This document shows, one piece after another, positions 17,001 through 21,202 of a stretch of DNA of 64,000 nt. The notes beneath the pieces are model-generated. The model was not told where the DNA came from. It did no database searches and worked only from the letters and a program-made list of their open reading frames with translations. The DNA is from Bacilli bacterium (lineage in GTDB: Bacteria > Bacillota_I > Bacilli_A > RF39 > UBA660), in NCBI GenBank assembly GCA_017460175.1, contig JAFUBO010000004.1, positions 23,592-87,591 on the forward strand, given 5' to 3'. The position numbers and the translations under genes were made by a program. Each line of letters starts with the position of its first letter. Within the stretch, counting starts at the first letter, position 1.

Positions 17001-18840
17001 AAAGTGTACCTACTAAATAACGTTGTGCATTAGATGTTGTAGCTTCTCTTGTTGCTGATGTACCAGCAGCACCAAACCATGTATGGAAATTGAAATAATC
17101 ATTTTCTATTATCTCTTGTAAAAATTCCATATCTGCACCATTAAAACTATAACTTATAACACCATTTTTTCTTTCGATAATAACATCTATTGGATTACTA
17201 TTCGTTACAGGATTAGTAAATGATAGATTAGGATTTTCTGCAAGAACACCATTAATTCTTTCTGTAATATGCATTTTTTTATTATTACTACCACTTTTTC
17301 TAAATACAATACCTGGATAATTTAAAGATTGATTTTCCAATTTAGAATTCATAAATGTTGCATTACCTGTGTTACTAGCACCATCATAAGCATTAATTGT
17401 AAATCCGATTTCATAATCTTTATTATAGTTTTCTTCACTATATAGCGAAATACCTGTATCAATATATTTATTAGCAGTAGCAGTATAATCTATATTTTCT
17501 CCAGTTGGATTTATAGTACTAATGCAATCGTTGGAATTACTAGTAATATTTGCACTAGAACCATTAAAAGTACAAGTTCCTGGAAGATAGAAAACATAAT
17601 CTAAATTATCAATTATTTCTTCCCATTTTGCATAAAGTGTTACGTTACTATTAATTCTTGTTTCTGGTGTTACTTCAGTTTCAAATGTATTATCTGTATA
17701 CCAACCGTCAAAAGTAAATCCTTCTTTTGTTGGGCGTGGAAGTGAGCCTATTTGTTGATTGGAATATCTAATAACGCTAGGAATACTACTTCCACCTAAA
17801 GAATTAAACGTTACATTATATGCCACTCTTTCTTTATACCCATCTAATGTATTGTAAGGTATTTCTATTACTGGTCTTGCAGTATTTTCACTTGTATTTG
17901 CAACAGAATTAACCATTCTAGTACCTGATTGAATTCTATAATAAGTATTACCTATTTTTTCTATCCAAATACCTGCTCTACCTAAATTACTAGATTGAAA
18001 TCTACTATTTTCCATGAAATATTGACATGTTTTTAAATAGTTAGCATCATCATAAGTAACTGTACCACATGCTTCTGTTAAATCTTCATGATTGATAAAT
18101 CTTGAGACTTTTCCATCAAAACTTGTAAGTGCAGGGTTAGTCCAAGTTGATGAATCTGGAAGATATGTTAGTGCGGTATCATATACATAACTACCTCTAT
18201 CTTTCCTGTTATCCATTTGACCATTTTCATCATAACTTGTAAAGTGAACTAATACAGCGTTTTCTACTCCATCATCATTTGTACGAGTATAATAAAATCT
18301 TTCTGTTGCTGCATCATATACTCCATCATTATTCACATCACAATCATATGCATATCCTGCTAATGGAATATCATCTTCAGGAATTACTCCGTAAGTGATT
18401 GTATCATTATTTTTATAACCATAACCAGTACAAGTACCACCTGATACACAAGCTTCTGTATGAAGTGTAGTTGCTTTTTTACATACAATTTTTACCCAAT
18501 GGGCGTGATATGTTACATTTGAAGTAACTGGAGTAGTTGGTTCTATTTTATCTCCACCAGTCTCTTCAGTATACCATCCAATGAAATTATATCCTTCTTT
18601 TGTTGTTGTAGGAAGAACACCAATTTCTTGATTTATTGTTCTAACAATAGGATTTACAGTAGTTCCACCATGAGTTTCAAAATTAATTGTAAATGTTGTA
18701 GATGGATCTAATACACTTAAATAAACTTTTGTATTTAAATTATTACGATATATTGAATAACTATTACTAATATTTTTAAAGAAAAGGCACATGAAAAAAA
18801 CTAAAATTACTGCTATCAATAATTTTATTTTATTTTTCAT
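14062..18840 (-). CDS. Giant secreted/cell-surface multidomain protein (1592 aa) ending in a protein-tyrosine/dual-specificity phosphatase-like domain
   Basis: The signal-anchor N-terminus ends in the 'NSYSIYRNN' motif. The C-terminal ~340 aa start with 'RNIRDLGG' and contain 'HCAIGTDRTGT' (HCx5R P-loop), as in Y_phosphatase3-type enzymes. The Finding for this gene gives the full domain breakdown. Confidence 0.7.
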   Translation of the reverse strand: MKNKIKLLIAVILVFFMCLFFKNISNSYSIYRNNLNTKVYLSVLDPSTTFTINFETHGGTTVNPIVRTINQEIGVLPTTTKEGYNFIGWYTEETGGDKIEPTTPVTSNVTYHAHWVKIVCKKATTLHTEACVSGGTCTGYGYKNNDTITYGVIPEDDIPLAGYAYDCDVNNDGVYDAATERFYYTRTNDDGVENAVLVHFTSYDENGQMDNRKDRGSYVYDTALTYLPDSSTWTNPALTSFDGKVSRFINHEDLTEACGTVTYDDANYLKTCQYFMENSRFQSSNLGRAGIWIEKIGNTYYRIQSGTRMVNSVANTSENTARPVIEIPYNTLDGYKERVAYNVTFNSLGGSSIPSVIRYSNQQIGSLPRPTKEGFTFDGWYTDNTFETEVTPETRINSNVTLYAKWEEIIDNLDYVFYLPGTCTFNGSSANITSNSNDCISTINPTGENIDYTATANKYIDTGISLYSEENYNKDYEIGFTINAYDGASNTGNATFMNSKLENQSLNYPGIVFRKSGSNNKKMHITERINGVLAENPNLSFTNPVTNSNPIDVIIERKNGVISYSFNGADMEFLQEIIENDYFNFHTWFGAAGTSATREATTSNAQRYLVGTLSNMYIRLESEAVVVNNITFNAHGGTASFVSKEVKRGSAVGKLPTVEKSGYYFDGWYTEETGGTKVETSTIITSDVTYHAQYKDIFLVTFNGKGGDVSITPNAIDVVDGNTVGANNLPTATKEGYVFDGWYTEETGGTKIDGTEPITSDTTYYAHYKHIFYVTFNGHGGTVNVTPNPVPVVEADIIGTSSLPIAIKEGYILEGWYTEETGGTKIDGTEPITSNTTYHARYIEKCTVTFDANGGTAYFSTKDVGKGQVVGELPTAEYTGYILEGWYTDNKFTTKVDPATTIVNSDVTYVAKWVDGNYTAMIGTTGYTSLADAVAAVTTNGVQTEVVLMKDTSEKVTFNGGRNVYLNLNNHTVSNNGTNNVFVVNNATVELTNGTVTTNTSQGAINVEANAILKLQDVTLTVTSAGARQAIYNDGGTTYISSGTNITDASTQRAAIQNKTNGKIYITGGKITSTGLYAIYNESGTLEIGEKDGTVDATTPVIEGKTYGLVANNTYRFYDGIIKGKTAPAGKTSSTGNTPTISVDTGETKISEVEDGTEKVNDVDGDYKTLYLQYQNKYKITLDPQGGTVSTTTIMVEPEDAIGALPTPTKGAYTFDGWEDENNNPVDDTTIPEGDMTIYAKWSFTPIHSTFNIINDPMRTYYNNISTWKNDETTFISSMETNFNNNNCLSCNASDYYQTCSATGEVQCDRPKGFTTGVTGTINVYTSDATTHAKGTQVNYVTVSDGVIYDMIPGQTYYWELASDTNVYGTITVQGERRILEAGGVRNIRDLGGLEVDTNNDGIKDGVIDYGRMYRGPKLNSGDDVTSLETLGITEEIDLRGNQNDNKLSNYAPREIRNYEVSPGFNNGTYYTQFRNALSATIDDIINGENIYFHCAIGTDRTGTMAWFLEGLLGVSEEDRVEDYELSYFYGLLNRHRFYRTQPNSSITHRFEYMYQTYQTNEDIYNYYTNNGTEHVEQVEAFRNEVITSYGS

Positions 18841-18871
18841 ACTATCACCTCTCTTTTACTATAATTTATAT

Positions 18872-19351
18872 TTAACTGGCTAATGTCTGTCTTGCTATTA
18901 CATTTATATTAACTTCTTCGTTGTTTACATATTCCGCATTTGATAAAGCTTTAAATGTCAATGTGTGTGATTTTGTTTTATTTGTATCACTATAATTAAT
19001 AGTGGATACATCAGCAAATATTACTTTATTGTTAACTTCTTCAATAAATTCACCATTATCAAGTGATATTGCAACACCAGATGGTAAATTATCAATAACT
19101 ATTGAATATATAATATCAACTTCTGATTTACTAGTTATATTTATAGTATAACTTGCAATACTTGTGCTATCTCCTGCAATTACTGACATATAGTTATTAT
19201 CTTGAGATTCATTTAAAACTACATTCCATTCAGCAGTTGCAATACTGTTATTTGAATTTGTAATACTTCTATACAAAGCATAAGAAGCAGGTATCATAAA
19301 AAAAGATAATACTAAGATTTGTATTATAATCATTAATATTTTATCTTTCAT
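18872..19351 (-). CDS. Small secreted protein with SipW-cognate-type N-terminus (TasA/camelysin-like candidate)
   Basis: The N-terminal 'MKDKILMIIIQILVLSFFMIPASYALYRSITNSNNSIATAEWNV' shares the Y-A-[LI]-Y-R-S...A-x-W-[NS]-V pattern with the 20648-21202 protein. It lies immediately downstream of sipW. Confidence 0.5.
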   Translation of the reverse strand: MKDKILMIIIQILVLSFFMIPASYALYRSITNSNNSIATAEWNVVLNESQDNNYMSVIAGDSTSIASYTINITSKSEVDIIYSIVIDNLPSGVAISLDNGEFIEEVNNKVIFADVSTINYSDTNKTKSHTLTFKALSNAEYVNNEEVNINVIARQTLAS

Positions 19352-20553: not shown

Positions 20554-20647
20554 TGTTACACTTCCCTTTAAAAACTATAAAAATTATAGCTTATAGCTTT
20601 TAAACGAAAGAATAATAAATTATTCTTATCGTTAATTATTATTATGA

Positions 20648-21202
20648 TTATTGTTCATTATGTAATGCTTGTCTAGCTGTTAAAGTTACTGGAATTGAAA
20701 TAGTTGATCCAGCCTTAGCTTTATCAGTAGTATCTTTACTAGTCTCATCAGCAATAGCACCAGCCCATTCAACGTTAAGTACAACATCAGCAGTCATACT
20801 AGAAGCGTTGTAAGCTATTCTTTGACTATTAGCACCACTAGCTAATGAAACACTCATACCAGTAGGTAATGTTACAGTTCCAAGTTCAGCTTCAACAATA
20901 ACATCTACTTCAGAACCTGTAGCATCTACTGGAACAGTAATAGTACATAATGAATCTGGAGCAATCTTACCTTCTACTTTAGAAGCTGTATAACTAGTTC
21001 CACCTGTACATACTAAATCATTTGCAGTGAAAACTTTTGTAACTGTTTCAAAATCAGCTTCACCAATTTTTACTGACCATGCAGCAGTATTTACTTCTCC
21101 GCCTCCAGTATTAACAGATCTATAGATTGCATAAGTACTGAATACTACTGTTAGTAATAATACTAATACTGCTAATACTAATAACTTTTTGTTTCCTTTC
21201 AT
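20648..21202 (-). CDS. TasA/camelysin-like secreted protein with SipW-cognate-type signal peptide
   Basis: I place the start at MKGNKK (21202), where GGAGG lies 9 nt upstream. The ORF track's earlier ATG overlaps that RBS. The N-terminus is 'LLVLAVLVLLLTVVFSTYAIYRSVNTGGGEVNTAAWSV'. The Ala/Thr/Gly/Val-rich composition and higher-GC codon choice suggest a highly expressed structural protein. Confidence 0.5.
   Translation of the reverse strand: MKGNKKLLVLAVLVLLLTVVFSTYAIYRSVNTGGGEVNTAAWSVKIGEADFETVTKVFTANDLVCTGGTSYTASKVEGKIAPDSLCTITVPVDATGSEVDVIVEAELGTVTLPTGMSVSLASGANSQRIAYNASSMTADVVLNVEWAGAIADETSKDTTDKAKAGSTISIPVTLTARQALHNEQ

Follow-up and report, generated by a model that had tools for sequence, protein, structure and literature searches.

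A conserved motif at the predicted signal-peptide junction of three proteins in a TasA/SipW-like operon from an uncultured Bacilli bacterium

We analysed a stretch of 64,000 nucleotides from a Bacilli bacterium (GenBank assembly GCA_017460175.1, contig JAFUBO010000004.1, positions 23,592 to 87,591; the whole stretch is called the window below). Five co-directional minus-strand genes at 14062-21202 encode, in this order, a small protein A, a transmembrane (TM) protein, an S26 signal peptidase, a second small protein B and a giant protein, and the motif Y-[AS]-[IL]-Y-R-[SN] is present at the N-termini of A, B and the giant. We consider it probable that at this motif a dedicated signal peptide meets an N-terminal segment for assembly, within a TasA/SipW-like fibre operon that belongs to an uncultured bacterium of the gut or rumen. 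The evidence for this reading consists of features that can be observed directly, i.e. the motif itself, its position and conservation, the synteny of the operon, the co-variation of the junction between loci and the paralogy of three sandwich proteins.

RESULTS

Three N-termini carry the motif

The motif had been quoted from the three N-termini in a first-pass annotation of the window, and both re-reading of the sequence and a regular-expression search of the six-frame translation confirmed it. The N-terminus of A (20648-21202, minus strand) reads ...VVFSTYAIYRSVNTGGGEVNTAAWSV (also given as ...STYAIYRSVNTGGGEVNTAAWSV), that of B (18872-19351, minus strand) ...MIPASYALYRSITNSNNSIATAEWNV (also given as ...ASYALYRSITNSNNSIATAEWNV) and that of the giant (14062-18840, minus strand) ...KNISNSYSIYRNNLNTKVY (also given as ...NSYSIYRNNLNTKVYLSVLDP). 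In each case the motif lies directly C-terminal to a Lys-rich n-region and a hydrophobic core. The segment A-x-W-[NS]-V, which the annotation had placed behind the motif in the small proteins, is indeed found there, as A-A-W-S-V in A and A-E-W-N-V in B. The positions are as follows:

21116..21133, minus strand: motif Y-A-I-Y-R-S in A; Ala (21130-21128) and Ile (21127-21125) flank the cut, as predicted by the -3/-1 rule together with the register of TIGR04088 and TasA
19265..19282, minus strand: motif Y-A-L-Y-R-S in B; predicted cut after Ala (19279-19277)
18742..18759, minus strand: motif Y-S-I-Y-R-N in the giant; predicted cut after Ser (18756-18754)
21071..21085, minus strand: A-A-W-S-V segment of A, +15 to +19 from the predicted cut
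19220..19234, minus strand: A-E-W-N-V segment of B, +15 to +19 from the predicted cut

The strict expression matches four times in the six-frame translation of the window, where about 0.06 matches are expected, and three of these matches are the N-termini (21133-21116, 19282-19265 and 18759-18742). The fourth (Y-S-I-Y-R-N, 21245-21228, minus strand) lies in a non-coding frame of the 5' leader of A and probably occurs by chance. With the window's own amino-acid composition the motif has a probability of 2.2e-7 per position, corresponding to 0.004 expected matches in the 50 open reading frames (ORFs) of at least 120 aa; the probability of three or more matches at residues 18-40 is about 3e-12. 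Within the window, the concern that such a motif might be common at random in an AT-rich proteome was thus not borne out (0.004 expected, three seen). A and B are paralogues (BLASTP 9e-11, 26% identity), and the motif they have in common is therefore partly inherited. The mature part of the giant is unrelated to A and B, so that its copy of the motif is an independent one.

The junction is conserved in a large, uncurated family

For A we found 338 homologues (E<=1e-3), all from metagenomes or from metagenome-assembled genomes (MAGs) named 'Bacilli bacterium'. T-Y-A-I-Y-R and A-A-x-W-S-V-K are almost invariant among them down to 50% identity; residues A25, Y27, A40, W42 and Q178 are invariant, and the E of S-E-V-D is nearly so in the A family and common in the wider one. 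The family also retains an aromatic residue at +2 from the predicted cut, an I-A-P-G motif and an invariant Q near the C-terminus. B has 86 homologues with [ST]-[YF]-[AS]-[ILV]-[YFLM]-[RK] ... A-x-W-[NSD]-V, one of them 100% identical and from an NCBI MAG 'Bacilli bacterium'. A joint profile of A and B collected, at E<=1e-3, 1434 representatives of clusters formed at 50% identity. Of the 78 diverse members sampled from this family, not one reached a Pfam or NCBIfam cut-off for a subunit domain: the family is uncurated.

In 282 distinct N-termini the junction follows the pattern [TS]-[YFL]-[AS]|[ILKR]-[YF]-[RK] (the bar marks the predicted cut), with A-x-W-x-V at a fixed spacing behind it:

Position -3: T/S, 95%
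Position -2: Y/F/L, 96%
Position -1: A/S, 98%
Position +1: I/K/L/R, about 92% (I 59, K 16, L 12, R 5)
Position +2: Y/F, 91%
Position +3: R/K, 76%
Position +10: G, 70%
Position +15: A, 96%
Position +17: W, 96%
Position +19: V, 94%

Anchoring of the sequences demanded that -1 be small, that +2 be one of Y/F/W/L/M/H and that the spacing from -1 to A(+15) be fixed, and 324 of 347 sequences complied; the share of Y/F at +2 and the 15-residue spacing are therefore partly built in, while -3 and -2 were unconstrained. The classical site of signal peptidase I has small residues at -3 and -1 and a bulky one at -2. Given small -3 and -1 residues around a bulky -2, the cut is most likely at [YF]-[AS]|[IL]-Y, i.e. 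inside the motif. The annotation had located the motif directly after the hydrophobic core, where cleavage would be expected, and the residues at -3 and -1 agree with this. A cleavage site close to the motif is thus retained from that proposal, with the modification that the motif probably straddles the cut rather than preceding it, which would leave a mature N-terminus I-Y-R-S that probably serves in assembly as well. We infer both cleavage and the exact position of the cut from this conservation and from the register described below.

Other types of export signal were considered and rejected. No Cys that could form a lipobox stands at the junction of A, B or the giant; a prepilin motif precedes the hydrophobic core, while the present motif follows it; and the motifs of Tat and YSIRK signals are absent.

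A distant relative suggests a link between the junction and the TasA signal

TIGR04088 models the SipW-cognate signal peptide, and as a positive control residues 11-44 of TasA scored 41.6 bits with it. A distant relative with Lys at +1, L079_4102, reached 18.8 bits (residues 15-47), just below the cut-off of 19. In the register of the model T25-W26-A27|A28-F29 of TasA falls on T-Y-A|K-Y of the relative; we read this register as ungapped because both matches span equal lengths of protein and model. The TasA chain in the fibre structure 8AUR starts at A28, residues 28-38 of TasA form the donor strand, and the pocket that F29 shares with P62 and Q232 is the most conserved one (PMC9674648, PMC10151520). 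By transitive homology the motif of the window would therefore correspond to the SipW cut site and to the start of the TasA donor strand. One of the 78 diverse relatives matches PF12389 (E 0.025). A PDB sequence search with the profile of A returned nothing meaningful.

The motif follows the cassette and co-varies within it

Protein look-ups and one genome scan gave 14 related loci, from MAGs labelled Bacilli, Bacillales or Erysipelotrichaceae, with rumen and sheep rectum as sources. The five-gene cassette (A, TM paralogue, S26 peptidase, B, giant) is present in every locus that is sufficiently long, and a SipW-type peptidase adjoins the motif-bearing genes here and in all longer loci. In every recovered cassette the motif is found on A, B and the giant only, which are exactly the three proteins with cleavable-looking signals; the TM paralogue lacks it. 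The core expression [YF][AS][IL][YF]R has 34 matches in the 313 ORFs (86.8 k aa) of the window and the 14 related loci, and all of them are at residues 15-50. Orthologous giants read [SAT]-F-S-I-Y-R-E-x-K-x-D-x-I-x-L-S-I-L-D-P. S-I-Y-R is invariant in nine orthologous giants that are 33-42% identical to the giant of the window over the first 55 residues. A homologue search with the N-termini of the giants returned five short fragments only and is no survey of cargo diversity.

Distant relatives carry K or R at +1, e.g. T-Y-A-K-Y-T-S or T-L-S-K-Y-V-G. A degenerate DNA pattern for one subunit of this K-type led to 67 metagenome loci, in which the neighbouring genes outside the pattern were then read. 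The products of these genes are additional subunits, S26 peptidases and cargo proteins of larger size, the last with N-termini such as T-F-S-K-Y-V-K-T-V-S-K-N-I-S-L-T-I-T-Q-P, T-L-S-K-Y-S-T-I-I-S-K-K-V-I-I-N-A-R-Q-P and S-F-S-R-F-S-T-T-I. When the +1 class of the cargo is compared with that of the subunits in the same locus, 10 distinct cargo N-termini pair I/L with I/L, 20 pair K/R with K/R and none crosses the classes; no formal probability is attached to these counts because whole cassettes are inherited together. Judged from these sequences, the co-variation shows that the junction is constrained as a set within each locus.

The related loci also vary in gene content. Several K-type cassettes have two S26 peptidases (L017 at 3116-3715 and 5205-5717, L034, L073). 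In P0303, a predicted protein of 346 aa, a complete S26 peptidase including its C-terminal TM segment continues into an entire subunit preprotein, which has a signal of its own and reads T-F-S-L-A-K-Y ... A-K-W-E-V. Either the two genes were fused in nature or a stop codon was lost; we count this joining of peptidase and subunit among the evidence for the reading proposed here. In P0342, P0284, P0240 and P0232 the subunits themselves carry C-terminal cargo; P0342 has DUF285/BspA-like repeats, and P0284 has an additional domain similar to the 'CTFNGS...YIDTG...GTLSN' region in the middle of the window's giant (about residues 430-620). A second family of 379-394 aa, without a copy in the window, flanks some cassettes (L001 8049-9233 and 19880-20549; L010 19373-20512) and has G-Y-A-[AL]-[FL]-S-S-x-L-x-I-x-G-T after the h-region, resembling the TasA-type junction T-W-A-A-F-N-D. 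In L004 (8384-9798) the cassette is directly preceded by a sortase gene and a gene for a secreted protein of 291 aa, which recalls srtB beside the bsa operon of Clostridium perfringens.

Anatomy of the operon

The genes of the operon and the promoter-like site upstream of it are, in the order of transcription:

21285..21313, minus strand: promoter-like site upstream of A (TTGAAA, 17 nt spacer, TG-TATACT); best-scoring minus-strand site in the scan, by consensus match only
20648..21202, minus strand: small subunit A of 184 aa, with a signal peptide, T-Y-A|I-Y-R-S and a beta-sandwich as its core; the core contains IAPG, SEVDV and, at the C-terminus, TARQ
19831..20553, minus strand: paralogue of A with a membrane anchor, 240 aa; the N-terminus is rich in Lys, and there is a single TM helix but no cleavage motif
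19359..19838, minus strand: endoplasmic reticulum (ER)/archaeal-type (SipW-like) S26 signal peptidase, 159 aa; matches to TIGR02228 and to Pfam S24/S26
18872..19351, minus strand: small subunit B, a paralogue of A with 159 aa that reads S-Y-A|L-Y-R-S ... A-E-W-N-V
14062..18840, minus strand: cargo protein of giant size (1592 aa) with a signal peptide and S-Y-S|I-Y-R-N, the amphipathic strand K-V-Y-L-S-V-L-D-P, seven copies of the Flg_new repeat and, at the C-terminus, a Y_phosphatase3 domain

The start of A at ATG 21202, assumed in the earlier annotation, is well placed behind a GAGGAGG ribosome-binding site. The longest ORF of A begins at ATG 21220, which falls within this ribosome-binding site, so the 184-aa form is the likely product. 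A hairpin followed by a T-run closes the upstream ABC permease gene, and the promoter-like site comes after this hairpin. The ABC transporter genes at 21360-23686 were rejected as members of the system: they are not syntenic in other loci, and the terminator-like hairpin and the promoter-like site separate them from A.

With TIGR02228 the peptidase reaches 70.1 bits, above the curated cut-off of 51.85, and the boxes TGSMED, ITHRII and TKGDANN can be read in its translation. With the Bacillus-specific SipW equivalog model NF046067 it scores 35 bits, far below the cut-off of 190. The stop of the TM-protein gene overlaps the start of the peptidase gene by 8 nt.

Eight orthologues of the TM protein, compared by hhalign with the A-like profile, show that its ectodomain shares homology with the A-like core (probability 97%, E 1e-10, 108 columns). 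This paralogy needed the alignment of the eight orthologues, as the single 240-aa protein gave an insignificant match of 21 columns with the broad profile A3. A [TS]-x-[AS]|x-Y site is missing from the TM paralogue, whose C-terminus is V-E-A instead of T-A-x-Q. Judged from its sequence, it is an internal control, which has the fold and the operon in common with A and neither a cleavable signal nor the motif. Orthologues of the 240-aa protein are 397-439 aa long, with weak matches to PASTA domains.

The giant matches PF09479 (2.3e-95) and PF13350 (1.2e-19) in Pfam. In NCBIfam, its residues 1-127 also match positions 1-128 of NF052328, a model of the Treponema neuraminidase TDE0471; over the whole protein this model gives 69 bits in five stretches (cut-off 900), a match that is probably due to the Flg_new repeat.

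Predicted structures

The AlphaFold2 (AF2) model of A is a beta-sandwich with a predicted local distance difference test score (pLDDT) of 82. Among PDB entries Foldseek ranked the TasA fibre 8aur first for A, followed by the CfaB, Pap and Fim pilins and by archaeal bundling pili, 7ueg among them. In the model of B (pLDDT 87) the core residues 65-155 reach 92-98, while residues 28-60, including A-x-W-x-V, form a coil at 59-70. That so conserved a segment is left unplaced in the model is the pattern that would be expected if its partner sits in another chain. The fold evidence for a link to TasA is, as far as models can tell, suggestive and not decisive.

DISCUSSION

The proposed mechanism is as follows. 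A, B and the giant would be exported by Sec, and the ER/archaeal-type S26 peptidase of the operon would cleave them after [TS]-[YF]-[AS], exposing a mature N-terminus [IL]-Y-R-[SN]. The aromatic residue at +2 and the amphipathic strand downstream of it (A-x-W-x-V in the subunits, V-x-L-x-V-L-D-P in the giant) would then serve as donor strand and complete the beta-sandwich of an adjacent subunit, as in TasA and TapA. The giant carries the tag and lacks the subunit fold and would therefore be grafted onto one end of the fibre, in the manner of TapA or AbpB; the membrane-anchored paralogue, a candidate membrane anchor, could hold the other end. Donor-strand exchange and the polarity of the fibre are what we infer. 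With known systems the operon compares as follows.

In Bacillus subtilis the tapA-sipW-tasA operon likewise includes a dedicated ER/archaeal-type signal peptidase, and its substrates end their signal peptides with T-[aromatic]-A|x-[FY]. The mature N-terminus of TasA, with an aromatic residue at +2 as here, starts the donor strand. TapA, like the giant, is an accessory protein with an unrelated body and an N-terminal segment in common with the subunit; its N-terminus mimics the TasA donor strand and nucleates fibres (PMC9674648, PMC10151520). Even the overlap of the peptidase gene with the gene upstream recurs (tapA in B. subtilis, the TM paralogue here). The two systems differ in the residues at +1 to +4 (I-Y-R-S here, A-F-N-D in TasA), in the size of the subunits, which are smaller here (about 135-160 aa mature), and in their number, with two subunit paralogues predicted to be cleaved and a third that is anchored in the membrane. 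As accessory protein the system of the window has a Flg_new/phosphatase-like giant of 1592 aa, unlike that of B. subtilis.

The sipW-bsaA-bsaB-bsaC operon of C. perfringens encodes a peptidase of the SipW type, a pair of small TasA-like proteins and a large one with an adhesive-type domain, and by this layout the operon of the window resembles it more closely than tapA-sipW-tasA. The signal sequences of the bsa proteins are thought to be cut by SipW, and BsaA polymerises by donor-strand exchange (PMC11580942). Differences are the lack of a TIGR04090 match, the Flg_new repeats in place of the VWA domain of the large bsa protein, and the extra TM paralogue. In the archaeal bundling pili AbpA/AbpB (PDB 7UEG) jelly-roll/beta-sandwich subunits are joined by N-terminal donor strands, as proposed here, and AbpB, the larger partner, has been proposed to supply the initiating strand and to act as an adhesin (PMC9245690). 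The giant would fit an AbpB-like role by analogy; the archaeal operon has no dedicated peptidase and no detectable sequence similarity to the system of the window. Chaperone-usher pilins (Fim, Pap, CFA/I), which are among the best, albeit weak, structural matches, also combine an incomplete Ig-like sandwich with an N-terminal extension. They are an analogy only, as there is no chaperone, usher or outer membrane here.

Several results weigh against the proposed mechanism. A, B and the giant had no match to TIGR04088, neither at full length nor, at E<=10, with their N-terminal 52-55 aa; A and B also had none to PF12389 or NF046066, in which they differ from the TasA system, and neither the window proteins nor the sampled relatives matched TIGR04090. 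The A-like profile aligns with TasA in a collinear but not significant manner (hhalign E 0.035, probability 1.5%); in this non-significant alignment the +2 aromatic, the Pro of I-A-P-G and the invariant Gln of the C-terminal T-A-R-Q are collinear with F29, P62 and Q232. The top structural match of A, to 8aur, is weak (E 2e-3, TMq 0.39). For B Foldseek found nothing below E 0.01, only generic Ig-like sandwiches, with 8aur in 12th place (E 0.036). In the model of A, moreover, the A-x-W-x-V segment is placed with high confidence on the protein's own core and may therefore be an ordinary first strand and no donor strand. The giant has no A-x-W, and its linker is 5-6 residues shorter than in the subunits. 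Finally, the co-variation at +1 is confounded by the shared descent of the cassettes.

As the window proteins have no TIGR04088 match, they are a divergent subclass and no members by the curated model. The proposal of the first-pass annotation, a cognate class of signal peptides that marks the substrates of the dedicated peptidase, is thus supported by the conservation at -3 and -1, the cassette-wide motif, the co-variation at +1 and the register of the relative, but not by a direct match of the window proteins to the SipW-cognate model: only the K-type relative comes close to the cut-off, with the TasA cut aligned to the predicted one.

Of the alternatives, the one that survives best, though we regard it as unlikely, takes the motif as a determinant of recognition and cleavage only, in which -3 to +4 fit subsites of the enzyme, no role in assembly exists and the giant is merely a co-processed secreted or surface protein. 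Conservation at -3/-1 and cassette-wide co-variation at +1 would be expected from enzyme-substrate co-evolution, and both the giant without A-x-W-x-V and the weak fold evidence for donor-strand exchange fit this explanation. To our knowledge, however, type I signal peptidases rarely constrain +2 to +4 so strongly, which counts against it. So does the fixed spacing to A-x-W-x-V, a segment conserved to about 95%. A structural role after cleavage is likewise suggested by the interface of the TasA protomer (PMC10151520), with which the +2 aromatic, the Pro of IAPG and the Gln at the C-terminus are collinear.

It is very improbable that the signal is an uncleaved anchor, with Y-x-x-Y-R as a juxtamembrane belt of aromatic and basic residues and the peptidase acting on something else. 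The hydrophobic stretch through Y-R measures about 21 residues, and the AF2 model of B has a single helix over residues 2-27 that includes the motif, as such an anchor would have. However, a small residue is kept at -3 and -1 in 95-98% of the sequences, the membrane-anchored paralogue of the cassette is the one without the motif, the TIGR04088 register matches the known TasA cut, and the gene of the peptidase is a neighbour in every case. Chance or mere shared ancestry without present function can practically be dismissed: A and B are paralogues and an AT-rich genome enriches Y, I, N and S, but against this stand the expected count of 0.004, S-I-Y-R invariant in nine giants at such low identity and a motif that persists in a family of 1434 cluster representatives and in distant K-type cargo.

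We therefore retain the motif as the junction of a dedicated signal peptide and an assembly segment. On this reading the system is a TasA/SipW-like fibre with a cognate signal, divergent and uncatalogued, and involves no new principle. A bolder version, which we put forward only tentatively, treats the N-terminal module as a two-in-one tag ('cut here, then plug in here'), with peptidase classes specific to each cassette and giants grafted to a TM-held fibre. The ER-type peptidase of each cassette would read its cognate class (I/L or K/R at +1), and the freed x-Y-[RK] end would dock into a TasA-like subunit together with the short amphipathic strand. A module of about 45 residues could in this way graft any protein that bears it non-covalently on the fibre, including Flg_new adhesins of 1500-2200 aa with a phosphatase-like head. 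If this is true, it would mean a modular, wall-independent display of giant surface proteins in uncultured gut and rumen Bacilli, and naturally orthogonal pairs of signal peptide and peptidase.

The value of the finding lies in the size of the uncurated family, in a usable search rule, in the giant cargo and in the I/L and K/R classes. The family of small secreted sandwich proteins with their cognate signal is large and uncatalogued, and belongs to bacteria known only from metagenomes. The rule [TS]-[YFL]-[AS]|x-[YF]-[RK] after an h-region, beside an S26 peptidase gene, picks out further substrates and also finds very large adhesin-like proteins that are otherwise annotated only as Flg_new repeat proteins. 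The I/L and K/R classes offer a natural handle on recognition by dedicated signal peptidases. If the donor-strand reading is true, TasA-like fibres reach well beyond PF12389, and the system would show how giant cargo is attached to fibres, a question common to TapA, BsaC and AbpB.

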